From positions 15,054 to 79,053 of the forward strand of contig JAZSCB010000002.1 in assembly GCA_045602705.1 (NCBI GenBank): DNA of 64,000 nucleotides. Reading direction: 5' to 3'. The notes beneath the pieces were generated by a model. That model saw only the letters and a list, made by a program, of their open reading frames with translations. It was not told the origin of the DNA and made no database searches. Within the stretch, counting starts at the first letter, position 1. Each line of letters starts with the position of its first letter. Below, one piece after another: positions 10,252 to 46,296 of the stretch. A program made the translations under genes and the position numbers. Source of the stretch: Alistipes sp. GTDB taxonomy: Bacteria > Bacteroidota > Bacteroidia > Bacteroidales > Rikenellaceae.

Positions 10252-10282
10252 TTTATCCTCTTTTTTTGATTTGACAACGAAA

Positions 10283-10843
10283 TTAATCGATCAACTCCTC
10301 CATCGGGGTCGAGTTCGTCACCCACTTACCCACATAGTTCACGTGCATCGAGTAGCAGTCGAAATCGACCACCAGCTCTTTAGCAGCATACTTGTAATCA
10401 CCCACCAGGTTAGAGATGGTGTACTTGCCATCACCCATTGGATCGTAGGGCTGGCCCATATAATAGGGGATCATCTCATCCACACCAAAGGTAAAGTCCC
10501 ACTCCTGGTCGAGCAGTTGCAGTTCGGCCAGACCGGGCAACTCCAGCGCAATCCAGACAGGCATCTCCTTCACAAACTTGATCTGGGGCATCGACAGGTT
10601 GACATAGTTCAGATCCGAGTTCTGCTCCGAAGCGACATCCTCGGTAAGGATAAACTCGATCTCATCGGCATCAAAGGCCTCGAAACGGCTCCCCTCGTTG
10701 GGAGTCACGGTGAGTTTGCCCACAAAATTGACAGCCCCCGGCACACCGGGCGTCGGATCATCATTCGGCACATCATCATTGTTGCAGGCCACGAAAAAGA
10801 GCCCCAGGGCCATCATCAAAAACAACTTTTTCATATTTTTCAA
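10283..10843 (-). CDS. small lipoprotein, calycin/lipocalin-like (uncharacterised)
   Basis: It has a lipoprotein signal (LGLFFVAC-NNDD) with acidic residues after the Cys. It lies 19 nt downstream of a TonB-dependent receptor. The beta-rich sequence has no enzymatic motifs that I recognise. Confidence 0.65.
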   Translation of the reverse strand: MKNMKKLFLMMALGLFFVACNNDDVPNDDPTPGVPGAVNFVGKLTVTPNEGSRFEAFDADEIEFILTEDVASEQNSDLNYVNLSMPQIKFVKEMPVWIALELPGLAELQLLDQEWDFTFGVDEMIPYYMGQPYDPMGDGKYTISNLVGDYKYAAKELVVDFDCYSMHVNYVGKWVTNSTPMEELID

Positions 10844-28208: not shown

Positions 28209-30869
28209 TTACTCCAACATATAGTCGCAATTCAGAATCGTCTGCGTCTTGTCGTAGATCAGGATATAGGCACCTACACGCCAGGCATAGCAGATATCCG
28301 AGGCATCGAAGATGATGTTGGGATTATCGCTGATGTCGAGGTAGTAGATCAGGGTCGAGATCGTATCCTCAATCTCACGCAGGTCGTTCGAACCGAGGTA
28401 GAGGCCACGCAGACCGCGGTGCTGATAGACACCCGTGGGCCACTCGCGCATAATACGCTTGCCATTCTCATCGCGCTGCGAGCGGAGAGCAAAGACCGTC
28501 AGGCCCTGGCAATCGAAGGGCTCGTAAGGGAACTCCGAGAAGCGGTTGAACGAGAGGTCGATACCATAGAAATAGGGCATATTGCCGGCGTGGAACTCCC
28601 AGGGCAGGTCGCTCAAGTAATTCCACGAGAGGTCGAGCGAGGTGAGGTTCACTGCACGCTCGTAGTCAAACGAACCGGTGGGCACCTCCTCGATCTGACA
28701 AGCACGCAGCACCAGATAGGCCACCTGCGAGTTACTTTTGGCCAATGCCACGGGATAACGCTTCAGCGGGTTCTGCGAGAGGGTGAAAGTCTCGACATTG
28801 ATACCCTTGTAGGTACCATCCTCCTCGCCCTCAAAGCCCGTAATCTCGTTGCCGGCAAAACTTACCGAGGTCATTCGGAAGTCATTCTGGGCCGAGAAGA
28901 TGTTGGGCACCTTCTTCAGTTTATTGTAGTTTACCGAGAAGGTCTCCACATCGTCATAACCACAGAAGTAGCCCTTCTCGTCAACCGGCAGCGACTCCAA
29001 CTTGTTGTAGTCGAGGTAGAGCTGTACGGGGGCCACCTCCTTGGTCAGAGGATAGATCTTCTCAATTTGGTTGTAGGCCAAATCCAAAAGACCGATCTTC
29101 TTGAGGTTGTGGAAGCTCTCGGGCAACTCCTTGAGGCTGTTCTGTCGCGCATAGAAGATTTGCAACTTCTCCTTCGAAGGGCCGTTGGCCAGGGCATCCA
29201 GCCCCTTGTAAATCTCCTCGGAGGGCCACTGACTGTTGTTGGAGATGTTGAGCGACACCAGCTCCGGCATCTCGGCCAGCACCATCGGGAAGGTGGTCAT
29301 CTTGGAGCAGTTATAGAGCTCGAAGTCGGTCAGCGAGGTGAGCTCCTTGAGCGACGAGGGGAGCCCCTCCAACTCTCCGTTGGCGATGTAGAGATACTCC
29401 AGATTCTTCAGCCGGCCAATCTCCTCGGGCAGCGACTTCAGGCCGTTGCAGATCGTACCGTGGTTGGTATCCATCGGGCGCAGCGTGCGCTGCTTGCCCG
29501 AGTGCATATCGAAGATCTCCTGCTCGGTGTACTCCTCATAGAGGGCCGTCGAGGGGGTCGAGATGCCGTGCTCGGCCAGGGCGCGGGCACAGGGCTCCGA
29601 GAGTTGCTCGGCGGGGTGAATCATCTGCAGGAAGGCCTTGTGGTTCTCCATTCGGTTACGCGTACGCTCCGAGAGGCTCTGGTCAAAGGCCAGCGAAGGA
29701 TCATAGGTAAAGAGATTCGCGTCGTTGTGAGTTCCGAGGTAGAGCTCCACCAGCTCGGTGAGCTGGCCAATGGCGGGCGAGAGGTGCCCACTGAAGGCGA
29801 ACTCGCTCAAATCGAGACGAGCCACACGGCCGTTGGCGTGAAGGGCCACACCGGGCTGATCACCCCACAGATCGACATCCTTGTTGAAGTCCCAATTGCT
29901 GCCTCGCGGGAAGTTCTCGCCACCATAGTACCACTCTTCACCATTGAGACTCTCCCAGATCGCCTTCAGGGCATAGTAATCCTGAATATACTCGTCAGCC
30001 TCATAGAGCGATACCTTGAGATCGGCCTCCGTGGTAGCGTTGTCGGCAATCGAGAAGTCCGACTCCACGGGATTGCTCTTGGTCTCGAGCAGCGTCTTGG
30101 TAGCGTCGTAGGCCTGATAGGAGACAACGCGATAGTCGCCCGCCTTGAGCGAGAGGAGCGTATCACAGGCAATCGAAGAGGTCTGGCGGAAATCCTCCAC
30201 ATCATCCTTCTCGTTGAAGTGGAGCGAGAAGGTGGCAGGCAGACGCTCGAAGCTCACCTGCTCGTTCGAACGCTTGTTCTGAACGGTGATGGAGATCGTC
30301 TTGATCTCATCAAAGGTGTATTGGCGCGACACGGCGCGCGTCTCCTCCTTGAAGGTCGAAAAATCCTTCTGCAGGGTGAAGCGCACCCAACCGCGAGGCT
30401 CCACATCGACCGTCAGGTCATATGAGGTGAGGCCGCCGGCCGTTACGGTGAGCGAAACATTTCCCGAAGGAACACCATTATAGACCGGCTCGTCGTTGGC
30501 GTCGTAAAGCATAAAGGCCACCACCTGGTAGTCACCCGCCAGGAGCTTGAGTTTGTCGCTTCGCAGGCCATACTCGGCCATCGCTTCATCGGCTGCCGCA
30601 AGAGTCAGGGTCTGGGCAATGGTCGTCTCACCATAGCTGAGGGTCACCTTCACCTTGGCTGCCTCGGAGAGGTAGTCGAGCTGGCTCTTCAGGGCACGGG
30701 TAGCATCTGCCGCCTCGTACGAAGCCTCCTTATAGAGTTTGAACTGCACATAGCCGTAGTCCAACTCTCGATGATCCACCGCCTCATCGTTGTCGGCGCA
30801 CCCCACAAAACCCAGTGTCGTCAGGGCGGCCCACATCATCAGGACGGCATATTTAAAACCTTTCTTCAT
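28209..30869 (-). CDS. large leucine-rich-repeat surface lipoprotein with repeated N-terminal beta domains (DUF4458-like)
   Basis: It has a lipobox (FVGC-ADNDE). Three similar ~100-aa N-terminal modules occur (YGYVQFKLYK.., RGWVRFTLQK.., ..DLKVSLYE). An extended LRR region follows (LTELVELYLG, LKNLEYLYIANGELEGLP, LKKIGLLDLAYNQIEKI, LTSLDLSWNYLSDLP). Confidence 0.8.
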   Translation of the reverse strand: MKKGFKYAVLMMWAALTTLGFVGCADNDEAVDHRELDYGYVQFKLYKEASYEAADATRALKSQLDYLSEAAKVKVTLSYGETTIAQTLTLAAADEAMAEYGLRSDKLKLLAGDYQVVAFMLYDANDEPVYNGVPSGNVSLTVTAGGLTSYDLTVDVEPRGWVRFTLQKDFSTFKEETRAVSRQYTFDEIKTISITVQNKRSNEQVSFERLPATFSLHFNEKDDVEDFRQTSSIACDTLLSLKAGDYRVVSYQAYDATKTLLETKSNPVESDFSIADNATTEADLKVSLYEADEYIQDYYALKAIWESLNGEEWYYGGENFPRGSNWDFNKDVDLWGDQPGVALHANGRVARLDLSEFAFSGHLSPAIGQLTELVELYLGTHNDANLFTYDPSLAFDQSLSERTRNRMENHKAFLQMIHPAEQLSEPCARALAEHGISTPSTALYEEYTEQEIFDMHSGKQRTLRPMDTNHGTICNGLKSLPEEIGRLKNLEYLYIANGELEGLPSSLKELTSLTDFELYNCSKMTTFPMVLAEMPELVSLNISNNSQWPSEEIYKGLDALANGPSKEKLQIFYARQNSLKELPESFHNLKKIGLLDLAYNQIEKIYPLTKEVAPVQLYLDYNKLESLPVDEKGYFCGYDDVETFSVNYNKLKKVPNIFSAQNDFRMTSVSFAGNEITGFEGEEDGTYKGINVETFTLSQNPLKRYPVALAKSNSQVAYLVLRACQIEEVPTGSFDYERAVNLTSLDLSWNYLSDLPWEFHAGNMPYFYGIDLSFNRFSEFPYEPFDCQGLTVFALRSQRDENGKRIMREWPTGVYQHRGLRGLYLGSNDLREIEDTISTLIYYLDISDNPNIIFDASDICYAWRVGAYILIYDKTQTILNCDYMLE

Positions 30870-30949
30870 AGTTGCAAAGTTGCTGTTTTGAGGTTGGTAT
30901 CGGATGGTGCCCCTCCACCTCTTCGGCGGAGGGGATCACCCACTCCGAT

Positions 30950-32551
30950 TTACTCGGCCTTATAGGTACAAGCCATAATAAAGAGATAGCGGTCGGTCGT
31001 ATCCTCGGGATAGAAGAAGATCGCACCCGTTGTCGGCACCGAAGGCATCTTGCTCACATTCATCACCACGGTCGCATAGTCGCTACGGTCGAACGAGAGC
31101 CAGGCCTTGTCCTCCTCGGAGATCGTATAGTTGTAGTTGACACCCTGGATGATGGCCATATTGCGGGTACGCTCGCCGATGAAGGTAAGTTCGTAAACCG
31201 GCACGCCATACTCCTTGTACTTCTCGTAGGTGGCACCCGAGGTCACCTGCTCCAGGTAGGCATCCTGGGCATTGGCCTCCTCCACGCTGAAGAAGCGAGG
31301 ATTGATCGTCGTCTGCGACTCGCCACCCGTAATCTGCTGGGTCAGCTCGCAAACCACATAACTCTGATAGGCCTCCTTCACCGAGAGGAAGTCGTTGGCC
31401 ACAAGCTGGGCTGCCGAACGCACACCCGAAGCCACCGAGGCGGGCAGGGCCAGAATCAGCGCCTTGCGATCGGCCTCCGTATCGTTAGGGGTACAGAGCA
31501 GCTCGACACGACGACTGCGGAGACCCTCCAGACCCAGGCTCTCATCCCAGGCCTCCACGCTCAACTGCACCCACGAAGTCTGGGCCTCATCGCCCGAGAG
31601 GTAGGTGATGCCGTTGCGCTCAAAATAGGAGAGCACGAAGAGTTCGGCACCATAGGTGGAGGTCATCGTACCGTGAGCACCCAGCTCATTGGCCGTACCA
31701 TCGTTCAGGTAGTTGCCGTCGATATCGAAGGTGAGCATCGAGGCGAGCTCCATCACCAGATAATCTTTCGATCCGGGGATCGTCACCTCCAACTCGGCCA
31801 CCGTAACCGACTCCTCACCGCTCTGATCCTGGAAGAGAAGTTTGCAGGTGGTATCCTCGGCAGGATAGTAGGCACTGTTGCTATCGAAGCGGAAACTTAC
31901 CGTCTCACCGGCCTCACCCGAAGTGACGGGAATCGACAACCAGGCGGGAATCTCGCCGCCAATGGTCCACTCGAAGTTGGCCTGTACCTGAATCCACTGC
32001 ATATAACCAATGGTATTGGCGGGCCAGATCAGCTCAACGGCCGTGGCAGGGGTGGTGTCATAGACCACCGAGTAATCCTCCTCGTTCCGCACGAAGTCAT
32101 TGTTCTCACCATCCACCAGGGCGGTGTAAAAGCTGATCTCATAAGCCTTCTTCTGACGCGTGAGGCGGGCGATGATCTTCGTCTCCTCCCCCATCGTCAT
32201 CGAGACCTCACAGAGAGCCTCATTGTGGAAATCCTCGATGTTGGCACAGGCGATCACCACCTCGCAGCTGCCGGCCTTGCCCTCCAGCGAGTAGCGGGTA
32301 TGCTCACCATCCTGAATCCAGAAGAGGTTGGCCGTAGCGGTCGGAACCGACACTTTCCAATCCGTGTTGGGATTCAGCTTGAGAGTGTAGGTGCCACCCG
32401 GCTCAATATCGGCCTCCACCAGGTTGGGGAACTCGGGCACCACGGGCTTTACATCCGGAGTCTTATCCTCGGGGTCCGAACAAGCCACCACGCCGGCAAG
32501 AGCCACCAGGCTCATCCACATACCGGCCATTTTCAAAAAACTCTTTTTCAT
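30950..32551 (-). CDS. surface lipoprotein of unknown function (possibly DUF5003-type)
   Basis: It has a lipobox (GVVAC-SDPED). The 533-aa sequence is beta-rich with BACON/Ig-like segments (NTDWKVSVPTATANLFWI, ANFEWTIGGEIPAWLSIPVTSGEAGETVSF). I recognise no catalytic motifs. Confidence 0.7.
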   Translation of the reverse strand: MKKSFLKMAGMWMSLVALAGVVACSDPEDKTPDVKPVVPEFPNLVEADIEPGGTYTLKLNPNTDWKVSVPTATANLFWIQDGEHTRYSLEGKAGSCEVVIACANIEDFHNEALCEVSMTMGEETKIIARLTRQKKAYEISFYTALVDGENNDFVRNEEDYSVVYDTTPATAVELIWPANTIGYMQWIQVQANFEWTIGGEIPAWLSIPVTSGEAGETVSFRFDSNSAYYPAEDTTCKLLFQDQSGEESVTVAELEVTIPGSKDYLVMELASMLTFDIDGNYLNDGTANELGAHGTMTSTYGAELFVLSYFERNGITYLSGDEAQTSWVQLSVEAWDESLGLEGLRSRRVELLCTPNDTEADRKALILALPASVASGVRSAAQLVANDFLSVKEAYQSYVVCELTQQITGGESQTTINPRFFSVEEANAQDAYLEQVTSGATYEKYKEYGVPVYELTFIGERTRNMAIIQGVNYNYTISEEDKAWLSFDRSDYATVVMNVSKMPSVPTTGAIFFYPEDTTDRYLFIMACTYKAE

Positions 32552-32591
32552 ATGCTTCTATTTTTTTCGTATTTTTCTTGTCGGTTTGTCT

Positions 32592-33518
32592 CTACATACT
32601 ATCCTTTTTCAGCTCGGCAGCCTCCTCGTCGGAGATCCACTCCATCACGTTGTAGAAGTGGCCCACCGTACCGACCATCTCACCCAGGTTCTCCACATAG
32701 ACCTGCAACCAGAGGACGGCAAATCGCTGGCAAGAGTTGAAATAGGAGAGGTTGGCCACACTCTCGCGGCCCAGGATGTGGTCATCGCCCAGCACCTGAC
32801 CGAAGACCGTCTGCTCGTCGGAGAGCACCTGATCCTTCTCCATCAGGAAGAGGGGGTTCCCCGGATCGGAGCTGTCGAAGCCGAAAGTGATGTCGTAACC
32901 GTCGTAGAATGCGTCACGCATAATGATCTTATCGGACTCCGTGGGGTGCGGCTCGGTATAGACCAGTCGCTGATAGCTCGTATTCATACCTGGATAGCTG
33001 TAGAGGTAGAGCGAGGTGAGGACACACCAACCCGTGAAGTTGCTGCGGTCGAAGGGGCAACTCTTATACATCACCACCTTGGTCTCGTTGTTAGCGGCAT
33101 AAAGATCCCACTTCAAGGCCTCGGGCACCACCAGGCGCAGACGGAAACCGAGCGAGTCGGTGGCCTCAAAATTCTCATAGAGGCCCTTGACACGCACCTC
33201 ACCGGCCACCTCACCGGCCGGGATTGTTACGTGGTTCGAGAGCAGACGATAGTGTCGGCCCTCCACGGCATTACTCCCCTCATCGATCACCTCCACGGCG
33301 AAGGTGCGGTCGTAGTCTCGCTTCACGGTCGAGGAGAGGGGAACCGAAAAGTAGTCGGCATCGCTCAAGACCATATGGGTCGAGAGGGTGTCGGCAAAGA
33401 TCACATACTCGGCATCGGAGTAGGTGGTATAGTGCTCCTCGCAAGCCGTCAAACCAGCCAAAAGCAAGGTAGCCATCCAATATAGCGTTATTCGTCTCAT
33501 AAGCATCGGGGATTCCAT
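32592..33518 (-). CDS. Calx-beta-like surface lipoprotein (DUF4984/DUF4843-type)
   Basis: It has a lipobox (LAGLTAC-EEHY) and a Calx-beta-like segment (FAVEVIDEGSNAVEGRHYRLLSNHVTIPAGEVAGEVRVKG). The ATG at 33518 overlaps the susD stop as TAATG; Met 33500 is an alternative. Confidence 0.7.
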   Translation of the reverse strand: MESPMLMRRITLYWMATLLLAGLTACEEHYTTYSDAEYVIFADTLSTHMVLSDADYFSVPLSSTVKRDYDRTFAVEVIDEGSNAVEGRHYRLLSNHVTIPAGEVAGEVRVKGLYENFEATDSLGFRLRLVVPEALKWDLYAANNETKVVMYKSCPFDRSNFTGWCVLTSLYLYSYPGMNTSYQRLVYTEPHPTESDKIIMRDAFYDGYDITFGFDSSDPGNPLFLMEKDQVLSDEQTVFGQVLGDDHILGRESVANLSYFNSCQRFAVLWLQVYVENLGEMVGTVGHFYNVMEWISDEEAAELKKDSM

Positions 33519-35062
33519 TAGTTGTTACTCTCGTTGGGTTGTACCATCGAGCCGGGCGACTCCAGCTCGTGTTGCGGAATGGGCCATACAAAGAGGGGGT
33601 TGTCCGCCTTCACCGAGAGCGACGAGCCCTCATCAAGCGAATTGGACTGGGGGGTACGGGTAAAGCCCTCGCCACCCTTGTAGAGGTTGCCCCAACGCTT
33701 GTAGTCCTGCAGACGGAAGCCCTCCATAAAGAGTTCGCGCACACGCTCGTCGGCCAGCTGGTCGATCCAATTCTCGGCCGTGAGGGTGATGCCGCCACCC
33801 GACTGGAAGCGGGCCGTACGCAGCGTCTCCAGATCCTTCGAGGCGGCCGAATAGTTGGGCGTAGCCTGACGGCAGTAGGCCTCGGCACGAATCAGATACT
33901 GCTCTGCCAGACGGAACAACTTGGGCATCGAGACGTGGTAGAGAAGGCTCGACTCGATGAAGCTCACATTGCCGTAATACTTCACCAGCAAGGGCCAGGC
34001 CAGTGCGTGATCATAACCCGTCTGACCGGTATAGAAGTAACCACCGTAACGCAGGTCGGTATCGGCATAGAGGTTCAGGGCCCACTGTGCCGGCACATAG
34101 TCGGGATAGAAGTAGGTGTAATCGACGTTGTAGCCCAGGAAGACCTGACCCAGGGCCCCTCCATAGGAAGTGGTCGTAAAGCCGATGCGGAAGATCAGCT
34201 CGGGACCGGCATCGTAGAGCCACATATAGTCGAAGTCGCTGTACTGACTCAGCGATGCGTGGTTAACGCTCTGCAAGCTGAAAACCTTGTTGGGGTGGTC
34301 GATCAGACGGCTTGAGTAGTCAATGGCTGCCTCCCAATCCTCCATATAGAGGGCCACGCGGGCTCGCAGGGCGCAAACCGCAGCATTGGTGAAGAAGACC
34401 GGCGAGGCGTAGTCATCCTCCACATCCAGCCGCTCCTCGGCCTCGGCCAGATCGGCCAGCACAAACTGATAGCTGTCGTAGAGCGAGCTACGTGTCAGAG
34501 GCTCCGCCGTAGAGAACTTCGAACGAATCACCACACCCAACTCCTCCTTGGCCGTCTCGGGGTGGTAGGCCTTACAGAAGCACTTCAACAGCTCCGAGTA
34601 GCAGAGGGCACGGATGGCGTGGATCTCTCCCGTATAGGTATCGAGCGTAGCGATGGCATCGTCATCGATCAGAGAGTTTCGTACCTGCTGCACTCGCTCC
34701 AGGTAGAAGTTACAGTTCGAGATGATGGAGTAGAGGGCGGCATAGACCGACTCGATTTCGGAGTTGGTCGAGCGAATATCCCACTGCCAGATCGAACCGT
34801 AGGTGTTGGAGTAGCCGTCGATGGCATAGACCAGGTCACTTTGGATATCGGGCAACAACGTCAGGTAGCCGCTCCAGAGGGCACTGCTCTTCATCTGGGC
34901 ATAGATACCCACCAGCGTCTGCTCTGCATCGCTGAAGGTGAGCATCGCCTCCTCTTGGGGAATGGCCGATCCGGGCTCCTTGTCCAGGCAGGAGGTGGTA
35001 AGGGTTACGACTGCCAGCAGGGTCGCAACCGGTTTCATATAGCGATTAAAAAACTTCTTCAT
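33518..35062 (-). CDS. susD: RagB/SusD family nutrient-binding outer-membrane lipoprotein
   Basis: It has a lipobox (LTTSC-LDKE). The sequence is TPR-like and helical with the typical SusD ending (RELFMEGFRLQDYKRWG...WPIPQHELE). It sits 6 nt after susC. Confidence 0.9.
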   Translation of the reverse strand: MKKFFNRYMKPVATLLAVVTLTTSCLDKEPGSAIPQEEAMLTFSDAEQTLVGIYAQMKSSALWSGYLTLLPDIQSDLVYAIDGYSNTYGSIWQWDIRSTNSEIESVYAALYSIISNCNFYLERVQQVRNSLIDDDAIATLDTYTGEIHAIRALCYSELLKCFCKAYHPETAKEELGVVIRSKFSTAEPLTRSSLYDSYQFVLADLAEAEERLDVEDDYASPVFFTNAAVCALRARVALYMEDWEAAIDYSSRLIDHPNKVFSLQSVNHASLSQYSDFDYMWLYDAGPELIFRIGFTTTSYGGALGQVFLGYNVDYTYFYPDYVPAQWALNLYADTDLRYGGYFYTGQTGYDHALAWPLLVKYYGNVSFIESSLLYHVSMPKLFRLAEQYLIRAEAYCRQATPNYSAASKDLETLRTARFQSGGGITLTAENWIDQLADERVRELFMEGFRLQDYKRWGNLYKGGEGFTRTPQSNSLDEGSSLSVKADNPLFVWPIPQHELESPGSMVQPNESNN

Positions 35063-35068
35063 AGGGCG

Positions 35069-38020
35069 TTAGAAAGTTAAGTCAAGACCAAAGGTGTACT
35101 GACGCGACATCGGGTACTGGGCCGCATAGATGTTGGCCGAACCCTCCGGATCAAGACCCGAGAAATTGGTGAAGGTCAGCAGATTCTGGGCCTGGACATA
35201 GATTCGCAGACCACTGAATACACGACTGCGCTTGATCCACTCCTGTGGTACCGAGTAGCTCAACATCACATTCTTCAGTCGTAGGAACGAAGCATCCTCC
35301 AGCAGGCGGTCGTCAAACTCGGTGTAGACGCCGTGACGCGGGATATCGGTCACATCACCCGGCTTCTTCCAACGCTCCAACAGACGGCGCGACTGGTTGT
35401 AGGAGGCAAAACGACCGTTCGACTCGTCGAAGTAGCGGTCGTTGTTCAGCATCCAACGATCGGCCACCCAGCTGAACTGGGCACTCAACGAGAGGCCGTG
35501 CCAGCTCAACGCCGTACCGAAACCGCCCGTCCAGGGGGCAATGTAGCTCTTGCCCACCAGCACCTTGTCCTCATCGCGGAGCTCGGTGGTCAGATTACCC
35601 TCCTTGTCATACCACAGGGCATCACCATTGGCAGGGTTCACACCGGCATAACGGTTGATGTAGAACTCACCCAGCGGGTGACCCACCACCAGCTTGGTAT
35701 TCGTGCCCGAACGCTCGTACTCCTGCACCCCGTTGTAGAGCTCCGTGATGCGGTTATGGTTATAACCCACGTTGGCATTTACCGTCCAGAGGAACTTCTC
35801 GGTGGCGATGAGCGTGCCATTCAGGTTGAGTTCGATACCCTTATTGACCATCGTACCCACATTGTCCCAATAGTAGCCGTAGCCCTTGTCGGAGTAGGCC
35901 TGGGGCACCTGCATCAACATATCGGAAGTCTGCTTGTAGTAGAACTCCAGATCGACATTCAGTCGGTGCCAGAAACCGACGTGGAAGGCAAGATTCGAGG
36001 TCCAGGGCTTCTCCCAACCCAGCTCCTCATTACCGGGCTGCATCAAGCCCACACCGGCGTTGCCCACATAGTCGAGGCCACCGCCTACCAGAGCCAGGTG
36101 CTCGTAGTTGGGGATCGAGGAGTTACCCGAGGTACCGGTCGAGAGCGAAACCTGGGCATTGGTAAGCCAGCGGGCTGCCGACTCGGCAAAACGCTCATTA
36201 CGCAGATTCCACATAAAGCCCAGCGACCAGAAACCGGCCCAACGGCGCGACGAGCCGAAGCGCGACGAACCATCGGCACGGGCTGCCACCTCGGCGAAGT
36301 AGCGGCCGTCATAGTTATACTCGGCACGCGAGAAGAAGGAGAGGAAACCATAATCCGAATCGGTGGTATCGTTCCACGAGGTGGCACGCGTACCGGTCGT
36401 GATGTTGGTCAGGCGGTCATTGGTCTGCCCCTTGGTCGTTATGGAGAAGGCCTCATAGTGGTACTCTACCCCCTCGTGACCGAGCAGGAAATTGAAGCTG
36501 TGCTTCTGGTCGTCGGTCGTAAAGGCGTAGTTGGCCGTATTGGTGCTCGTCAAGGTGTAGCTGTCGGTCGTACTGCGCGAAGCGGTACCCTGTCCCTGGT
36601 TGGGATAGTAGCTCGGATAGGAGAGGCCGTAACCGGTGGTGTGGGCGTAGTCGATACCCAGCTGGGCACGCAGCGTAAGGCCCTCCACGGGGGTTGCCTC
36701 GGCAAAGAGGGTCGAGAGCAACTTATACTTCTTGTAGGTCACAGGGTTATTCTCCAGCCACTCCAGGGGGTTCTGACCCGTACCCTGCCACGAGCCGTCG
36801 GCGAGCGAAGCGAGCGAGCCATCGGCCTTGTAGGGGCTCCAGTAGGGCATCATAAAGCGGGCTGCCGAGATGGGGGTTACCAACGTATAGGCACCCTCAT
36901 CGGCCTGCTCGATATTCTGGAAGTTGAGCATCGTACTGGTACCCACCTTGAGCCACTTGGCCGCCTTTTGTTCCACGTTGGCACGCAGCGAATATCGCTC
37001 GAACATCGAGCCCACGGCCGTACCATCCTGGCTGTAAAAGCCACCCGAAAGGTAGTAGTTGGTATTCTCGTCGGCACCCGACACCGAGAGTTCATAGTTC
37101 TGCAGCAGAGCGGCCGAATTGAAGACCTCCTCCGACCAGTTGACATCGGTTTTGCTCAAGAGGTTGTAATCCTGACCCTCCGTGAGGCCGATCTCCTTCT
37201 CATACTGGATACGCTCGGCCGTATTCATCAGATCCCACTTATCGCTGTTGGCCATCTGCGAGAATCCGAGCTGCATACGATACTCGATGCGGGGACGCTC
37301 GGCCTTGCGACCGCGCTTGGTCTGGATCACGATCACACCGTTGGCAGCACGGGCTCCATAGATCGAGGTCGAGGCGGCATCCTTCAAGACCGTCAGCGAC
37401 TCAATGTCGGCGGGATTGATGGTATTGAAGTCACCAGCCGAAATGGGCACACCATCCAGGATGTAGAGGGGAGCCGTACCCGAGTTGATGGAGTTGGTAC
37501 CACGAATGGTCATCGTAGCCGAGGCACTGGGCTCTCCCGAGTTGGAGAGAACCGTAAGACCGGCCACCTGACCCTGCAGAGCCTGATCAAAGGCCGCCGT
37601 GGGGGTGGTCTCCAGTTTCTCGGACTTCACCGAAGCCACCGAACCGGCCACCGTGTTCTTCTTACGGACACCATAGGCGATGACCACCACATCCTCCACC
37701 AGCTCGGCCTCGGGATGCATCTCGAGGTCGTACTGCACCGACTTCTGACCCGAAGGGATCACCCACTCCACGGTCTGGAAGCCGAGATACTGGAACGACA
37801 GGGTGGATCCTGCCGGTGCCTGGATGGTGTAGGTACCGTCCCAGAGGGTACTCACACCGTTCATCGGATCGGCGATGACGGCCACACCGATAAGGGGCTC
37901 CTTATCCTCGGCCGAGATCACCGTACCACTCACGGTCACGCGCTCCTGTGCCTCCGCGAAGAGCGGGGCGAGGAGAAGCATCAAAACCGCAAGGAATCGA
38001 AAGGTTAGTGTTTTATGCAT
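35069..38020 (-). CDS. susC: SusC/RagA family TonB-linked outer-membrane transporter
   Basis: It has a CarboxypepD_reg N-domain (VSGTVISAEDKEPLIGVAVI), a plug (TMTIRGTNSINSGTAPLYILDGVP, IESLTVLKDAASTSIYGARAANGVIVI) and a 22-strand-size barrel ending ...YTFGLDLTF. There is no STN/anti-sigma signalling extension. Confidence 0.95.
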   Translation of the reverse strand: MHKTLTFRFLAVLMLLLAPLFAEAQERVTVSGTVISAEDKEPLIGVAVIADPMNGVSTLWDGTYTIQAPAGSTLSFQYLGFQTVEWVIPSGQKSVQYDLEMHPEAELVEDVVVIAYGVRKKNTVAGSVASVKSEKLETTPTAAFDQALQGQVAGLTVLSNSGEPSASATMTIRGTNSINSGTAPLYILDGVPISAGDFNTINPADIESLTVLKDAASTSIYGARAANGVIVIQTKRGRKAERPRIEYRMQLGFSQMANSDKWDLMNTAERIQYEKEIGLTEGQDYNLLSKTDVNWSEEVFNSAALLQNYELSVSGADENTNYYLSGGFYSQDGTAVGSMFERYSLRANVEQKAAKWLKVGTSTMLNFQNIEQADEGAYTLVTPISAARFMMPYWSPYKADGSLASLADGSWQGTGQNPLEWLENNPVTYKKYKLLSTLFAEATPVEGLTLRAQLGIDYAHTTGYGLSYPSYYPNQGQGTASRSTTDSYTLTSTNTANYAFTTDDQKHSFNFLLGHEGVEYHYEAFSITTKGQTNDRLTNITTGTRATSWNDTTDSDYGFLSFFSRAEYNYDGRYFAEVAARADGSSRFGSSRRWAGFWSLGFMWNLRNERFAESAARWLTNAQVSLSTGTSGNSSIPNYEHLALVGGGLDYVGNAGVGLMQPGNEELGWEKPWTSNLAFHVGFWHRLNVDLEFYYKQTSDMLMQVPQAYSDKGYGYYWDNVGTMVNKGIELNLNGTLIATEKFLWTVNANVGYNHNRITELYNGVQEYERSGTNTKLVVGHPLGEFYINRYAGVNPANGDALWYDKEGNLTTELRDEDKVLVGKSYIAPWTGGFGTALSWHGLSLSAQFSWVADRWMLNNDRYFDESNGRFASYNQSRRLLERWKKPGDVTDIPRHGVYTEFDDRLLEDASFLRLKNVMLSYSVPQEWIKRSRVFSGLRIYVQAQNLLTFTNFSGLDPEGSANIYAAQYPMSRQYTFGLDLTF

Positions 38021-38198: not shown

Positions 38199-38241
38199 AA
38201 AAAAGAGAGAGGGGAGACGCTCAGTATGAGCATCTCCCCTC
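38199..38241 (-). terminator. rho-independent terminator after the HMA gene
   Basis: The stem is GAGGGGAGACGCTC - AGTAT - GAGCATCTCCCCTC: 14 bp with one position that is a G-U wobble in the minus-strand transcript. An A-rich run on + gives a T-run on the minus strand. It lies 23 nt after the stop. Confidence 0.7.
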
Positions 38242-38263
38242 CCCCTTCGGATCCCTTTCGGGA

Positions 38264-38584
38264 CTACTTCTCGGCGGGCTTGGGCTCAGCCTTGACCTTG
38301 ATCTTTGAGAAACCCTTAACAAGGGTCTCCACGCTGGTCTTTTGGGGGTTATAAACCACGGTCACCTCCTTCGTCGGGAGATCAACGGTCACATCCTCCA
38401 CACCGCGACCCAGCACGGGCACGTTGTTCATAATCTTGTCGGCGCAGTGCTGGCAGTCAATATCGGTCACAAAGACTACCTGCTCCAGGGGCTCGCCCTT
38501 CTTGCCCTTCAGGGGCTGCTGCTCGGCGGCATTGACCGCCAGAGCCACCACTGCCATCAGGCAGCAAAGAATCAGCTTTTTCAT
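38264..38584 (-). CDS. secreted heavy-metal-associated (HMA) domain protein
   Basis: It has a signal peptide (MAVVALAVNA-AE). The ferredoxin-like HMA domain has a CxxC metal site (DIDCQHCADKI) and a Lys-rich tail. Confidence 0.85.
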   Translation of the reverse strand: MKKLILCCLMAVVALAVNAAEQQPLKGKKGEPLEQVVFVTDIDCQHCADKIMNNVPVLGRGVEDVTVDLPTKEVTVVYNPQKTSVETLVKGFSKIKVKAEPKPAEK

Positions 38585-38735
38585 TTTTCTGTTTTCTATT
38601 TTTTTGGTTGTAATATATTCTGTTTCAGTTGCTGTTATACAACGTTATTCGATCGGAATTTATTGTCAAAAAAGAGCCTTTTTACTCTCGTTTCACGATC
38701 TCCACTTTTTGCCGCAAGCAAACTGTGCCGCGAAA

Positions 38736-41159
38736 TTAATAGAGATTGAAGCGCATTCCGATATAGATCTTCCGACCCATCAACGGCCCCCAAACCACCG
38801 AAGAGTTGAAGGTGGGATCGTAGGGGTTGTCACCGGGTTGGAATTTGTGGCCATTGACGGTAATGGGATCGTCCTGCGTGTAGTCGAGGATATTCTCACA
38901 GCCGAGATAGATGTCAAACTTACCAATCTTGCGGCTCACCTGGGCAAAGAGCATCGGATAGGAGGGCGAGAGGTACGTATCAATCATATTGAAACTCGAC
39001 GCCGGAGTGCGGGTAGCAGCCGAAACCGCATCGAAATCAGGCAGACGCGAGGGACCGTTGTACTGGAAGGTGGCATCGAAGGTCCAACGACGGAACTTGG
39101 TGGCATACTGCACGTTCAAGAGAGTCTTGTAGCGGCTGATCAGGGGACGCTCCACGCGCTGACGCGTACCATCGGGACGATCAAGCGTGATGGCGCTGTC
39201 GGTGTAGCGGAAGGTAGCAAAGATATCGAGACGCTCCACGGGCGTCCAGGTAAAGTCGAGCTGATAGGAGTCGGTGTAGGAGCGGCCATCGGTGTTGTAG
39301 ATATAGACAATACCGGGCATATACTCCTGGTCGGCCACCACCTGGTTATAGAACTGCGAACGGAAATAGTCAAGGCTCAACGTGGCATCCTTCTCACGCA
39401 CCAGGGTAAAGGTCTGCGTCAGCGAACCTCCGAGGGTGAGGGCCTGCTCCATTCGATTCATCTCCCGGAAGGGATCATCCACTCCGTGAGGATTGGCCAG
39501 CACCAGACGACGCCCCGTGGCAAGGATACCGATGTTGTCGGTGATGAGATTCGTCGAGCGGTAGCCCATACCGGCCGAGGCTCGGAAGACGGTGGTGGGG
39601 GTGATGTTCCACTTGACGTGGCCTCGCGGCGTGAAGTAGATCTTGTCGTAGAAGGTGTTGTAATCACCACGGGCACCAATCACCAGCGAGAACTTATCGC
39701 GAATCGAGTAGGTATACTCGGCATAGAGACCCACCTCGTGCTCGGCACGGTTGAAGATGTGCTTCTCAAGAGCATACGAAGGGCCGCCACTCAAATCCGG
39801 AGTGAGACCTACATCCAGATCCTCGTCATAGAAGCGAAGCTGGCCCGAAAGTCCGACAATCAGGGTGGACTTCGGCGTAAAGTAGTGATTATACATCACG
39901 TTGGCCGTCACGGCATCCTCCTGACCCCGATAATCGGTCAGACCGAAGTAGGCACGCTCATCAAAGAAGTCGTAGTCGATAATGGTGGCAATGTTGGAGC
40001 GCAACTCCTCCTCCACCTCCTCGTCATAGACCGAAGCCCCGACGGGAGCACCCAGCTTGAAGTAAGCATTGGCGTTGCGGTTATGAATGTGGGAGCCGTA
40101 GATTCGATCGTTCAAACGGGCCTCTCTCCAAATATGGCTGTCGGCTTTGCGTGCCTCGTGCATCTCGCGCGTGTAGGCATTCATACCACCCAGGCGGCTC
40201 TCATCGACATACTTGGCACCCCAACGCACCTGCAGACCATTGTCGGCCTGGTAGAGCCAGCGGTTGGCCACATTGATCTGGCTTCCCTTGGGCATATCGC
40301 GGAAGGTGTCGTGGTTGTGATCCATACCATCCTTGTCGGTATCCATTGAACCGTGGGCCAGGATGACGGTCGTCAGTTTGCCATCCTTCGAGACGGGGAG
40401 GGCCGAGGAGATATTGATCTCGGGCTTAAGTTCGTCGTCGAGGTAGGCATTGACGAAGAGTCGCTCGCTGTCGGTGGGCTTACGGTGCTCAAGATTGATC
40501 TGGCCCGTGATGGCCTCGTGACCCGCCGTAACGGAGGCCACGCCCTTCGAAACCTGGATCGAATTGAGCCACATACCGGGGGTATAACTCAAGCCGTAGG
40601 GGGCACTCAAGCCGCGCATAATGGGGCGGTTTTCATCGAGAATCTGGGTATAGGTGCCGGCCAGGCCGAGCATCTTGATCTGACGGGCTCCCGAGATGGC
40701 ATCGCTATAGCCCACCGTGACCGAGGCAGAGTTCTCGAACGACTCAGCCAGGTTGCAGCAGGCCATCTTGCAGAGACCGGCAAAGGAGATCATCTCCCCC
40801 TTCAGAAGGCCGTCGCTCTTGACGAAGTTGCCACCGATGGTACTCTCCACCACCACCGACTCGATACCGATGCCCTCCTCGTGGAGAACAAACTCCACAT
40901 TTTGGGTTTCGACATCAATTTGAATGCGCTCGATATTATAGCCCACATAGCTGGCAGCCAAGCTGTTATGACCCTTGACACGATGAAGGCGGAAGGAGCC
41001 GTCCGCATCGGTCATCGTACCGATCGTAGTCCCCTCCCAGAGGACGGTGGCACCAATCAGGGGCTGGTTGTTCTCATCGACCACCTTGCCACGCAGATCC
41101 TGCGCCGAGAGGGTGAACGAAGAGAGAAGAATCGCTAAAAAGAGGATAAGTTTTTTCAT
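38736..41159 (-). CDS. TonB-dependent receptor with CarboxypepD_reg N-domain
   Basis: It has a signal peptide (FTLSA-QD) and a CarboxypepD_reg domain (LRGKVVDENNQPLIGATVLW). The plug region carries GLCKMACCNLAESFE. The barrel ends ...GMRFNLY. Confidence 0.9.
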   Translation of the reverse strand: MKKLILFLAILLSSFTLSAQDLRGKVVDENNQPLIGATVLWEGTTIGTMTDADGSFRLHRVKGHNSLAASYVGYNIERIQIDVETQNVEFVLHEEGIGIESVVVESTIGGNFVKSDGLLKGEMISFAGLCKMACCNLAESFENSASVTVGYSDAISGARQIKMLGLAGTYTQILDENRPIMRGLSAPYGLSYTPGMWLNSIQVSKGVASVTAGHEAITGQINLEHRKPTDSERLFVNAYLDDELKPEINISSALPVSKDGKLTTVILAHGSMDTDKDGMDHNHDTFRDMPKGSQINVANRWLYQADNGLQVRWGAKYVDESRLGGMNAYTREMHEARKADSHIWREARLNDRIYGSHIHNRNANAYFKLGAPVGASVYDEEVEEELRSNIATIIDYDFFDERAYFGLTDYRGQEDAVTANVMYNHYFTPKSTLIVGLSGQLRFYDEDLDVGLTPDLSGGPSYALEKHIFNRAEHEVGLYAEYTYSIRDKFSLVIGARGDYNTFYDKIYFTPRGHVKWNITPTTVFRASAGMGYRSTNLITDNIGILATGRRLVLANPHGVDDPFREMNRMEQALTLGGSLTQTFTLVREKDATLSLDYFRSQFYNQVVADQEYMPGIVYIYNTDGRSYTDSYQLDFTWTPVERLDIFATFRYTDSAITLDRPDGTRQRVERPLISRYKTLLNVQYATKFRRWTFDATFQYNGPSRLPDFDAVSAATRTPASSFNMIDTYLSPSYPMLFAQVSRKIGKFDIYLGCENILDYTQDDPITVNGHKFQPGDNPYDPTFNSSVVWGPLMGRKIYIGMRFNLY

Positions 41160-41229
41160 TGTTTTCGTATGTTGTAAGGGTTAAAATGGGGAATTTCACA
41201 ATACACGCAAAGCATTGTGATTCGTCAAA

Positions 41230-41658
41230 TTAAGCCAATACAGGAGGAGCTCGGAGCGATTGATTCTGCGGGCTGCCTTCCCGGCAGCCCTCCGCCACAC
41301 GAAGGCGGATCCGTTCAAACGAAACAAGAGGTTGATCGAGGGGGATATCCTCGCCAATGAGTGCCTCGGGAAGCTCGATGACCACAACTCGCTGAGTGGG
41401 TCGCTCCTCGTCGCCCGAGGGGATGGTATAGAGCTCGACATCGGTCGAGTGGTTGTGACCACAGGTACAGAGGGCCTTGAAGTGAAGATCGTGCTCCGCG
41501 CAGGGGGCTACGCGGTGGCAACAAGAGCAACTCTTTTCGCTCGATTGATGAAGGCGGTTCAGGCAGGGACAGGTAATGGAAGAGAGGGCCGGTGCGGCGC
41601 AGAGCACCACATAGACCGTCAAAAGCCACATCGCCAGAAATCCTCTTCTACGCTGCAT
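41230..41658 (-). CDS. secreted Cys/His-rich protein (uncharacterised)
   Basis: The 142-aa ORF has genome-typical GC3-rich codons and a signal peptide (VVLCAAPALSS-I). A cluster follows: TCPC..H..SCSCCH..PCAEHDLH..LCTCGHNH. The ATG overlaps the upstream stop as TAATG. Confidence 0.65.
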   Translation of the reverse strand: MQRRRGFLAMWLLTVYVVLCAAPALSSITCPCLNRLHQSSEKSCSCCHRVAPCAEHDLHFKALCTCGHNHSTDVELYTIPSGDEERPTQRVVVIELPEALIGEDIPLDQPLVSFERIRLRVAEGCREGSPQNQSLRAPPVLA

Positions 41659-41924
41659 TACTCAATCAATTCACACGTTTTCAACTTCTCCACCCAATGG
41701 ACTGCATCGCGCAGGGCCGTGGAGGCATCCACCTCGTAGCGGTCGGTCAGAAGCCGTGACACATCTTCCACCTCAAACTCACGCCCCTCAAGCGACTCCC
41801 AAAGATAGAGCGAAGTGGCATTCAACGAGATAACACGGGTCATATCAACTCCGTGGCGACCCTGCATAATCACCACGTGCTCTCCGGCCATCTCTCGAAC
41901 CTTGCACTCTCTCTTTAGTCTCAT
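41658..41924 (-). CDS. PqqD-family (RRE-like) small protein
   Basis: These are the last 88 codons of the 347-aa track ORF: MRLKRECKVREMAGEHVVIMQG....ISLNATSLYLWESLEGREFEVEDVSRLLTDRYEVDASTALRDAVHWVEKLKTCELIE. This matches the PqqD pattern (LNxtaxxiWexl.G..t.eeiv..L...Y.vd...a..Dv..fl..L...gli). The rest of the ORF is antisense to recQ. Confidence 0.7.
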   Translation of the reverse strand: MRLKRECKVREMAGEHVVIMQGRHGVDMTRVISLNATSLYLWESLEGREFEVEDVSRLLTDRYEVDASTALRDAVHWVEKLKTCELIE

Positions 41925-41942
41925 TGTGCGCACAATTTGGGG

Positions 41943-41950
41943 CAAAGGTA
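41943..41950 (-). promoter_or_regulatory. -7 promoter box TACCTTTG for the PqqD-like/Cys-rich/TBDR unit
   Basis: CAAAGGTA on the + strand lies 19 nt upstream of the ATG at 41924. Confidence 0.55.
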
Positions 41951-42017
41951 CGATATCTTTCCCGAATTTCCTATACCAAAAGCTCCGGAAAAGAAAATAT
42001 TTTTCGGAAATTATCAC

Positions 42018-44585: not shown

Positions 44586-45779
44586 ATGAGAGCCCAAGTC
44601 TATCTGAAACGCGGCAAAGAGGAGTCGCTGCTTCGTCGTCACCCCTGGATCTTCTCGGGGGCCGTGGAGTATATCAAAGCCGAGGAGGAGCCCGAAGAGG
44701 GCGCTCTGGTCGATGTCTTCACCAAACAGGGGGAGTTCATCGCCCGTGGCCACTACCAAATCGGCTCCATCGCCGTTCGCGTACTCACCTTCGAGGAGGA
44801 GGAGATCAATGCCGCCTGGTGGCAGCAGCGCATCGCCTCGGCCTATGACGTGCGTCGCACCCTGCAGCTCACCGAGAGCGAAGAGACCACCTGTTACCGC
44901 CTGATTCACGGCGAGGGCGACTCGTTGCCCGGTCTGGTGGTCGACATCTACGGTACGACGGCCGTGGTGCAGTGCCACTCGGTGGGTATGTACCGGGCCC
45001 GTCTGGAGATTGCCGAGGCGATCCGTGCGGTCTATGGGGATCGTATCACCGCCATCTACGACAAGAGTTCGCAGACCGTCCCCTACAAGGCGGGGCTCAA
45101 TGCGGTGGACGGCTACCTCTACGGCCGTGCCGCACACCCCACGCAGGAGGTGTTGGAGAATGGTCACCGCTTCCGTGTCAATTGGGAGGAGGGACAGAAG
45201 ACGGGCTTCTTCATCGACCAGCGACGCAACCGCGAGCTGGTAGGCCACTATGCCAAGGGGCGTACCGTGCTCAACACCTTCTGTTATACGGGCGGTTTCT
45301 CGGTCTATGCAATGGCCGGTGGAGCCAAGGAGGTGGTCTCGGTCGACGCTTCGGAACGAGCCGTGAAGCTCGCTGACGAAAATATGGTGCTGAACTTCGG
45401 TCCCGAGGTGAACCACTCCTCACTGGCGGTCGATGCGGTAGAGTACCTCAAGAATATCGGTCCCAAGTACGACCTGATCATCCTCGATCCTCCCGCCTTT
45501 GCCAAGCACCACAAAGTCCTGGGTAATGCAATGCAGGGCTACAAGCGTCTTAACGCCCGCGCCTTGAGTCAGATCAAGCCGGGAGGCATTCTCTTCACCT
45601 TCTCCTGCTCGCAGGCCGTCTCAAAGGAACTCTTCCGCACCACGGTCTTCTCGGCAGCAGCCATTGCAGGCCGCAAGGTGCGAATCCTCCACCAGCTGAC
45701 CCAGCCCGCCGACCACCCCATCAACATCTATCACCCCGAGGGAGAGTATCTGAAAGGATTGGTATTGTATGTCGAGTAG
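44586..45779 (+). CDS. rlmI: class I SAM-dependent 23S rRNA (cytosine-C5) methyltransferase, RlmI-like
   Basis: It has a PUA-like N-terminus (RRHPWIFSGAV), FFIDQRRNR, the SAM-binding motif VLNTFCYTGGFS, and DLIILDPPAFAK. Confidence 0.85.
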   Translation: MRAQVYLKRGKEESLLRRHPWIFSGAVEYIKAEEEPEEGALVDVFTKQGEFIARGHYQIGSIAVRVLTFEEEEINAAWWQQRIASAYDVRRTLQLTESEETTCYRLIHGEGDSLPGLVVDIYGTTAVVQCHSVGMYRARLEIAEAIRAVYGDRITAIYDKSSQTVPYKAGLNAVDGYLYGRAAHPTQEVLENGHRFRVNWEEGQKTGFFIDQRRNRELVGHYAKGRTVLNTFCYTGGFSVYAMAGGAKEVVSVDASERAVKLADENMVLNFGPEVNHSSLAVDAVEYLKNIGPKYDLIILDPPAFAKHHKVLGNAMQGYKRLNARALSQIKPGGILFTFSCSQAVSKELFRTTVFSAAAIAGRKVRILHQLTQPADHPINIYHPEGEYLKGLVLYVE

Positions 45780-46296
45780 TTTTACCGATTTAAGAAACGA
45801 GTCTATGGAGCGTATTGAACGTGTATTGCATTGGCTTGATGAGCAAGGACTTGCCTACGAGTGGTATGAGCACCCCGCCTCCCCCACCATCGAGGAGGCA
45901 AAGCAGCATTGGCGACAGGATGGGTCGAAGCACTGCAAGAACCTCTTCTTCCGCACCCACAAGGGCAACCGCCACTACCTGGTCTGCTTCGACTGCGACC
46001 AAGCATTGGCCATTCACGACCTGGAGCACCGACTCCGTCAGGGAAAACTCTCCTTCGCCTCGGAGCAGCGAATGGAACGCTACCTGGGATTGCAACCCGG
46101 CTCGGTATCACCCTTCGGCCTGATCAACGATGCGGAGCACCACGTTCATCTCTTTCTGGATGAAAACCTCCGCAAGGAGCACCACTTGAGTTTCCACCCC
46201 AACGACTGCCGCGCCACGGTGGTCATTGCCCGCGAGGAGTTCGAGCGTTACCTCTCTCTGGTAGGCAACAGCTACGAATACATCGAGCTCTACTAA
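45769..46296 (+). CDS. YbaK/ProX-type aminoacyl-tRNA deacylase domain protein
   Basis: Motifs are KNLFFRTHKGNRHYLV and GSVSPFGLIND, typical of prolyl-tRNA-synthetase-associated editing domains. The start is either 45769 (11-nt overlap) or Met 45805. Confidence 0.8.
   Translation: MSSSFTDLRNESMERIERVLHWLDEQGLAYEWYEHPASPTIEEAKQHWRQDGSKHCKNLFFRTHKGNRHYLVCFDCDQALAIHDLEHRLRQGKLSFASEQRMERYLGLQPGSVSPFGLINDAEHHVHLFLDENLRKEHHLSFHPNDCRATVVIAREEFERYLSLVGNSYEYIELY

Follow-up and report, generated by a model that had tools for sequence, protein, structure and literature searches.

The four-gene cassette

Within a 64-kb stretch of an Alistipes sp. genome (contig JAZSCB010000002.1; the whole stretch is hereafter the window), four open reading frames (ORFs) follow one another on the minus strand and encode a PqqD-like protein, a Cys/His-rich protein, a TonB-dependent receptor, and a protein with an HMA domain (genes 1–4, Table 1). 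The cassette is real and conserved, and its new elements are a protein family and a recognition element of the type known from pathways to ribosomally synthesized and post-translationally modified peptides (RiPPs), a RiPP recognition element (RRE), that has no linked enzyme. The layout had been described in an initial annotation made from the DNA alone, and the ORFs, the terminator hairpin, and the promoter motif were confirmed. The stop codon of gene 1 (TAA) and the start codon of gene 2 (ATG) overlap as TAATG, 70 nt separate gene 2 from gene 3, and the gene sizes, the 151-nt spacer, the −7 box, and the terminator are as first annotated.

The motif TAnnTTTG is enriched in the window (37 observed, 14 expected), and a similar box stands just 5′ of the PqqD-like start in nearly all of 77 related upstream regions (judged by eye, uncounted). 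Scanning the receptor–HMA spacer for the same motif returned none; the distance between these two reading frames differs widely among genomes, so no conserved element is expected there. An Rfam scan of the window detected one tRNA and no other RNA element. The four genes look like a single transcription unit.

Table 1 Features of the four-gene cassette, in the order of transcription, with window positions (aa, amino acids; pLDDT, predicted local distance difference test)
Feature	Position	Strand	Description
−7 box, Bacteroidota type	41943-41950	-	TACCTTTG; 18 nt 5′ of the PqqD-like ATG
Gene 1, PqqD-like protein	ORF 41661-41924; feature 41658-41924	-	88 aa
Gene 2, Cys/His protein	ORF 41233-41658; feature 41230-41658	-	142 aa
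Gene 2, N-terminal basic stretch and hydrophobic helix, residues 1-29	41572-41658	-	AlphaFold helix 3-28, pLDDT 87-95
Gene 2, Cys/His cluster region, residues 30-70	41449-41571	-	Predicted non-globular, pLDDT ~50
Gene 2, C-terminal tail LRAPPVLA	41233-41256	-	Invariant R-A-P-P, ends three residues before the C-terminus
Gene 3, TonB-dependent receptor	ORF 38739-41159; feature 38736-41159	-	807 aa
Gene 3, plug motif C130-K-M132-A-C134-C135 (CxMxCC)	40755-40772	-	C130, M132, C134, C135 in 83/83 orthologues
Receptor–HMA spacer	38585-38735	-	151 nt; no recognisable promoter box
Gene 4, HMA protein	ORF 38267-38584; feature 38264-38584	-	106 aa
Intrinsic terminator, hairpin and T run	38203-38247	-	20 pairs (11 G-C), then TTTTTCTTTG; ends the unit

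Conservation of the cassette

Each species being represented by a single genome, a scan with the PqqD-like protein detected relatives in 233 genomes, and the best 80 of these were examined as loci comprising the cassette region with ~7-kb flanks (a locus is given as L0xx where it has to be singled out). All 80 genomes are labelled Alistipes, Rikenellaceae, or unclassified Bacteroidales, among them A. putredinis DSM 17216 (L021) and A. montrealensis (L090). Relatives of the PqqD-like protein at 53–99% identity are numerous, and those with a named source are labelled Alistipes or Rikenellaceae.

The order PqqD, Cys/His, receptor, HMA on one strand is kept in ~78 of these 80 best-matching species genomes, the exceptions being L078, which holds a PqqD homologue only, and L037, which has no match to the Cys/His protein. 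With this degree of recurrence, the four-gene arrangement is far beyond chance. The surroundings are much less constant: recQ adjoins the cassette in only ~50 of the 80 loci, and 3′ of it no gene family is common to more than 23 (the commonest neighbor families scanned are a PfkB kinase, a metallo-beta-lactamase-fold protein, YidC, and two families without a Pfam match). Two highly divergent members, with Cys/His proteins only 23–27% identical, keep the quartet amid wholly different flanks (LepA, ferredoxin, Na/H antiporter). Because the quartet persists where both flanks differ completely, it moves or is inherited as a unit. It is a conserved operon, so far found only in genomes carrying the three labels above. 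The initial annotation had named synteny as a check on its reading, and related genomes were found to retain both gene order and strand.

The initial annotation had also remarked on the lack of a maturase, an inner-membrane transporter, and a regulator. None of these is linked to the cassette in the window or in the 80 related loci, and no RiPP-modifying enzyme family (radical SAM, YcaO, lasso B2/C, and others) was found there within the 7-kb flanks. No ORF of at least 200 aa in the whole window carries the radical-SAM motif CxxxCxxC; as this motif is missing and the flanking genes scanned are of other kinds, the lack of these partners is real. Our literature search found no paper on this gene set.

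Gene 1 encodes a stand-alone RRE

The PqqD-like protein matches PF05402 across the full profile (positions 1–67; 53.6 bits against a cut-off of 23.4, E = 2.8e-14). It has no signal peptide and should therefore be cytoplasmic. Its AlphaFold model (pLDDT 92.7) is a winged helix of three strands followed by three helices (E8-12, E15-20, E30-34, H36-45, H52-62, H67-83). The best Foldseek match of this model is TbiB1 with its bound leader peptide, at a template modelling (TM) score of 0.76–0.79, followed by further matches such as the lasso B1 protein 6jx3 and PqqD 5sxy. All significant matches are peptide-binding RREs, with no DNA-binding regulator among them. Gene 1 thus encodes a genuine stand-alone RRE without a linked enzyme. 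The protein has the size and the three-strand, three-helix fold of the lasso B1 and PqqD RREs (PDB 5V1U, 6JX3, 5SXY; TM 0.67–0.79), but unlike them it has no B2 protease, lasso cyclase, radical-SAM enzyme, or other partner enzyme nearby in the 80 genomes. Assignment as a lasso peptide B1 chaperone was rejected, with scores far below the cut-offs of the models concerned (NF033536, 22.7 against 80 bits; NF033530, 18.6 against 70 bits).

Across 85 sequences, the mean per-column identity to the window protein is 61%. The most conserved stretches are KVREMAGE and DMTRVISLN, the latter corresponding to the third strand, and Cys84 is kept in 83 of the 85 orthologues. In known RREs, the bound peptide pairs with the third strand. 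The start of the Cys/His gene follows the PqqD stop codon at a median gap of 15 nt (78 genomes), for which reason the Cys/His protein is the only plausible client of the PqqD-like protein.

A different setting was seen in L078 (positions 7001-10304; uncultured Bacteroidales metagenome-assembled genome, CALUSC010000002.1), where a 57%-identical PqqD homologue heads another overlapping operon. This operon encodes an ATP-binding cassette (ABC) exporter of the MsbA/NHLP-bacteriocin type, a 301-aa P-loop protein without a family match, and a SipW-like signal peptidase I; just upstream, one gene codes for a P-type ATPase of the CopA type that carries HMA domains, and another for a multi-pass membrane protein that looks MATE-like. 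The operon looks like a peptide-export cluster. Given the exporter and the SipW-like peptidase that accompany its PqqD homologue, the RRE lineage of gene 1 appears to serve in peptide-export settings as well. No homologues of the L078 exporter, P-loop protein, or signal peptidase were found in the window or in the other loci.

Gene 2 defines an unnamed, fast-evolving family

Searches of Pfam, NCBIfam, and the PDB with the 142-aa Cys/His protein returned no relative, and a PDB sequence search with the family profile gave nothing at E up to 1. A word-based search reached only five close clusters. A profile search of 1.8 billion representatives gave 171 relatives, counted as representatives at 50% identity, with E up to 1e-3 and nearly all of 125–160 aa, and every named member is a “hypothetical protein [Alistipes]”. 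Judged by these searches, the protein founds an unnamed, fast-evolving family: identity of its members to the window protein is ~20–50%, as against mean per-column values of 61% for the PqqD-like protein, 60% for the receptor, and 48% for the HMA protein. Orthologues contain a median of 8 Cys and 11 His in ~141 aa.

Conservation in the family, computed over 165 distinct members, is concentrated in three places. Within the N-terminal hydrophobic segment, Tyr16 is kept in 98% of members, and an AxA-like site ahead of Cys30 is seen in many of the displayed ones (by eye); this N-terminus may act as a cleaved signal peptide, as a signal anchor, or as the signal of a lipoprotein. In the cluster region, conservation reaches 97% for C30, 74% for C32, 83% for C44, 91% for C46, 81% for C47, 89% for C64, and 98% for C66, together with 76% for H48 and 98% for H70; the family overall has about six conserved Cys and two His (74–98%). 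The C-terminal tail is the third, with R136, P138, and P139 at 100% and A137 at 99%, and its two prolines lie exactly three residues from the C-terminus in 161 of the 165 members. The AlphaFold model (mean pLDDT 60.7) has the N-terminal helix as its sole confident part, and the remainder, at ~50, fits a motif-based, metal-dependent, or disordered region.

The NCBI gene call (P0001, 133 aa) begins nine codons downstream of the TAATG-coupled ATG (window 41632-41658). Because homologues keep the basic N-region, the 142-aa form is probably correct and P0001 probably truncates that region. A c-type cytochrome motif, CxxCH, fits C44-S-C-C47-H48 in the window protein; it was rejected, as the spacing elsewhere in the family is CxxCxxH or CxxCxH, or the motif is absent.

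The initial annotation had raised a possible kinship with HYC_CC_PP proteins (NF047658), which it placed, tentatively, next to similar receptor and HMA pairs. Neither part was supported. NF047658 gave no match to the window protein and matched only 1 of 90 family members, at E = 0.003. A sequence composed for the purpose served as an HYC_CC_PP proxy, and it represents that family because it scores 142.7 bits over the full model; hhalign of this proxy against the Cys/His family profile gave a probability of 2%, over the hydrophobic N-terminus only, and the kinship was rejected. The two families are alike in being small Bacteroidota proteins (~130–140 aa) near metal genes, with an N-terminal hydrophobic segment, Cys motifs, and a PP, but in HYC_CC_PP the PP is not at the C-terminus and the sole placed example is in an efflux rather than a receptor context. 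This example is a “hypothetical protein” on a Pontibacter actiniarum plasmid (NZ_CP021236.1; L093, 8998-9426) that matches the proxy at 36% identity (E = 5e-7). Its gene lies between a transposase and an efflux set of the resistance-nodulation-division (RND) type (TolC and two adaptor subunits), with a heavy-metal P-type ATPase and an HMA protein near and no receptor, which suggests, from one placed locus, that the HYC_CC_PP family belongs to metal-efflux islands.

Gene 3 encodes a receptor with an atypical plug

The receptor consists of a signal peptide, a CarboxypepD_reg-like N-terminal domain (PF13715, CarbopepD_reg_2, 4.3e-20), a TonB-box-like ESVVVES at residues 100–106, a plug, and a barrel (PF00593, 1.7e-16; 61.6 bits against a cut-off of 27). 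The domain assignments of the initial annotation for this receptor, for the PqqD-like protein, and for the signal-peptide-bearing HMA protein with its CxxC agree with the Pfam matches to PF13715 and PF00593, PF05402, and PF00403, respectively. The Plug score of the receptor, at 22.7 bits, falls short of the Pfam cut-off of 23.9, whereas the plug of the neighboring SusC scores 76.7 bits. While the whole receptor averages 60% identity across orthologues, its plug (residues ~122–233, window 40460-40800, minus strand) hardly varies among 83 orthologues along a stretch of more than 100 residues. By its sequence, the plug is strongly constrained yet atypical. It holds the CxMxCC motif, and C754, H214, and H269 are likewise kept in 83/83 orthologues.

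The closest solved relative is XusA (9gbc_A), the receptor of the Bacteroides XusAB siderophore importer, aligned over the N-terminal domain and plug only (E = 2.6e-11); the barrel weakly matches enterobactin receptors. XusA has NSTQNL where the receptor has CKMACCNL, so that the motif stands just before the NL-x-(D/E) helix and a PGV-like strand. Going by this alignment and by receptor structures in general, CxMxCC would sit in the early, periplasm-proximal plug. The XusABC xenosiderophore system of Bacteroides is a non-SusC metal-chelate importer operon (PDB 9GBC; bioRxiv 10.1101/2024.04.15.589501), and XusA shares the ~800-aa architecture of carboxypeptidase-like N-terminal domain, plug, and barrel. 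In contrast to XusABC, no XusB-type surface lipoprotein or PepSY inner-membrane gene was seen as a linked family here, though no profile search for these was run.

A second point of comparison is OprC, a TonB-dependent receptor that imports ionic copper through direct binding of Cu(I)/Cu(II) by plug Cys and Met, with no siderophore (bioRxiv 10.1101/2020.06.04.134395). The receptor resembles OprC/NosA of Proteobacteria in having conserved Cys and Met in its plug, but their CxxxM (plug) and HxM (barrel) differ from CxMxCC, which lies much nearer the TonB box, and phylum, N-terminal domain, and accessory genes differ as well. Membership of the OprC/NosA copper receptor class was rejected, since the CxxxM–HxM site is absent and no copper-receptor model is among the NCBIfam matches. 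Membership of the SusC/RagA subfamily was rejected, too: the receptor reaches 66.9 bits against the 368 bits of TIGR04056, through the N-terminal domain only, the next gene encodes the HMA protein, and no SusD is adjacent.

Gene 4 encodes a periplasmic HMA protein

The HMA protein (PF00403, E = 1e-10; 42.2 bits against a cut-off of 24.8) has a signal peptide and is periplasmic. The CxxC of its metal site, C44-Q-H-C47 (window 38444-38455, minus strand), is kept in 79/79 orthologues, at a mean per-column identity to the window protein of 48%. CopP, CopZ, and MerP are the nearest NCBIfam models, all below their cut-offs, and a MerP equivalog was rejected (TIGR02052, 17.2 against 92.55 bits). A signal peptide with a single CxxC-bearing HMA domain is the architecture of MerP; what sets the protein apart from the MerP and CopZ metallochaperones is that no mer or cop genes are linked here and its partner is an outer-membrane importer. 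Cys8 of the signal peptide (residues 7–8 region) is kept in 63/79 orthologues and lies too early for a lipobox cysteine.

Promoter region and flanking genes

The cassette's neighbors in the window are unrelated to metals. On the 3′ side lies a SusC/SusD-type locus (28209-38020, minus strand); it also holds a DUF4984/DUF4843 protein, a 533-aa protein without a Pfam match, and an 886-aa protein with DUF4458 and leucine-rich repeats. On the 5′ side are recQ and genes for an exonuclease, a methyltransferase, a protein with a tRNA-editing domain (PF04073), and acetate/butyrate kinase. Ten flanking genes were scanned on the two sides together; in addition, ORF 45769-46296 was assigned to PF04073 solely by synteny with a PF04073 gene in L010.

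Several repeats were seen upstream of gene 1. The divergent recQ/PqqD intergenic region of the window has an imperfect inverted repeat at 41985-42015, TCCGAAAAATATTTTCTTTTCCGGA, and the same place in L076 has a different one, TTTCCCC-TTTTA-GGGGGAAA. Subsets of the promoters share AAAAATTAGG(C/T)nnTT(T/C) or the palindrome TATTAC-n3-GTAATA, ~25–50 nt 5′ of the −7 box; such motifs occur in L014, L018, L021, L030, L033, L034, L051-L053, L057, L065, L080, and L090, and also in L028, L031, L046, L062, and L072. They could be lineage-specific operator sites.

A proposed model for thiophilic metal handling

From the anatomy, folds, conservation, and synteny described above, we infer a ligand, a direction of transfer, and a set of protein–protein contacts. 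The most likely ligand, handled in the cell envelope, is an ion of a thiophilic metal, such as Cu(I) or Zn(II), or else a thiolate-bound complex of that ion. The reading that we favor, tentatively, is that the cassette takes up or handles such a metal and that the Cys/His protein has, in the PqqD-like protein, a cytoplasmic chaperone of its own. In this model, the TonB-dependent receptor would move the ligand, whose class is suggested by CxMxCC and the conserved His, across the outer membrane, and the periplasmic HMA protein would accept the metal by hand-over onto its invariant CxxC. The Cys/His protein, exported through its N-terminal signal or anchor, may bind or relay the metal on the periplasmic side, as a mostly unstructured partner akin to metallothionein, and its RAPP tail may be a docking motif for another component. 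Before export, the PqqD-type protein may act outside any RiPP pathway as a peptide-binding chaperone that holds a conserved segment of the Cys/His pre-protein.

A thiophilic-metal envelope system is the best supported reading: thiols are conserved in each of the four products, two products belong to classic module types for metals or transport, and the genes are inherited together. The initial annotation had proposed a system for a thiophilic metal or a metallopeptide, and the conservation of CxMxCC, CxxC, and about six Cys and two His lends support, at the level of sequence, to a putative thiophilic ligand.

Several points weigh against our model. We know of no RRE that acts without a modifying enzyme, which would make the chaperone role unprecedented. 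By the XusA alignment, CxMxCC stands early in the plug and not at the copper site of OprC, and it could be structural, for instance through disulfides with C754; the function of Cys-rich proteins in the periplasm could also lie in redox chemistry and not in metals. The copper need of a strict anaerobe is small. Neither an inner-membrane importer nor a metal sensor is linked to the cassette, nor is any operator recognisable as that of a metal regulator. No operator is common to all of the 77 regions upstream of gene 1, and the promoter regions are not conserved between species.

Alternative explanations

Three alternatives to tentative assignment as a metal uptake or handling cassette were weighed, each of which we consider unlikely, together with a fourth that is far less probable. 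In the first, the Cys/His protein or a fragment of it would be the precursor of a ribosomal metallophore, presented by the PqqD-type protein to a modifying or processing enzyme encoded elsewhere; the released product would capture metal outside the cell and be re-imported by the receptor, with the HMA protein as periplasmic acceptor. The closeness of the gene 1 fold to leader-bound lasso B1 proteins suits this explanation, as do the direct coupling of a precursor-like gene 3′ of the RRE gene, the exporter and SipW-like signal peptidase encoded beside the 57%-identical homologue in L078, and the invariant C-terminal tail, which may be a recognition or core element. It is made improbable by the lack of a maturase, protease, or exporter linked to the cassette within ~7 kb in 80 genomes and of a radical-SAM motif in the window. 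Moreover, with 142 aa and a classical basic-plus-hydrophobic N-terminus, the protein looks like a Sec substrate and not like a leader peptide, and no type IX C-terminal domain or lipoprotein surface-export signal was recognised in it, by eye only.

A variant of this explanation, to which we assign an equally low probability, is a ribosomal metallophore that is maturase-independent or matured in trans. Escorted by the PqqD-type protein, the Cys/His product would be exported, load a soft metal in the sulfide-rich gut, and be recaptured by the receptor via its RAPP tail, with hand-over to the HMA protein. If this were true, the cassette would provide the first RRE that works apart from an enzyme-linked RiPP pathway, and gut anaerobes would have a class of metal acquisition, based on a protein, that is new.

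Buffering or detoxification would instead make the Cys/His and HMA proteins periplasmic sponges against Cu, Cd, Hg, or Zn, with the receptor as an accessory. Resistance loci typically contain HMA proteins with a signal peptide, MerP being one, as well as small envelope proteins rich in Cys; CopP, CopZ, and MerP are the nearest HMA models, and the superficially similar HYC_CC_PP-like gene of the Pontibacter plasmid is surrounded by genes for RND efflux and a P-type ATPase. However, TonB-dependent receptors are importers, the cassette is linked to no efflux pump, P-type ATPase, multicopper oxidase, or metal sensor in the 80 loci, and in most sampled genomes it sits amid housekeeping genes rather than on mobile resistance islands; we regard this explanation as doubtful.

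A non-metal substrate, such as a peptide, a thiol compound, or a cofactor, is similarly improbable. The invariance of the HMA CxxC speaks for a metal, as HMA domains are known almost only as metal binders, and the enrichment of Cys and His alongside Cys/Met in the receptor is typical of soft-metal chemistry. On the other side, CxMxCC lies in the early plug, away from the usual ligand-binding loops, the invariant receptor cysteines 130, 134, 135, and 754 could make two disulfides, and no metal regulator or transporter is linked; the cysteines would then be structural or form redox disulfides, and the HMA protein would be re-purposed as a binding protein.

That the PqqD-like protein is a regulator of its own operon, as a winged-helix DNA binder or a metal sensor via Cys84, would accord with the descent of the RRE fold from the winged helix-turn-helix, the first position of its gene, its nearly invariant Cys, and the lack of any other linked regulator, but is highly improbable given that its significant structural matches include zero DNA-binding regulators, that the 77 upstream regions share no conserved operator, and that we know of no RRE that binds DNA.

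Implications

The cassette contains one protein family without a name, a domain, or a structure. To our knowledge, the only role recognised so far for the PqqD-type domain is that of an adaptor for RiPP enzymes; should it be that the RRE serves here as a chaperone or escort, the known roles of RREs would widen, and genome-mining tools that take an RRE as the flag of a RiPP cluster would need a caveat. Alistipes is among the commonest genera of the human and animal gut, and, as far as we know, trace-metal acquisition in gut Bacteroidales is almost uncharted apart from the iron and B12 systems of Bacteroides. If the CxMxCC plug binds metal, it would represent a second, independent solution to the direct import of ionic metal by a TonB-dependent receptor, after OprC.

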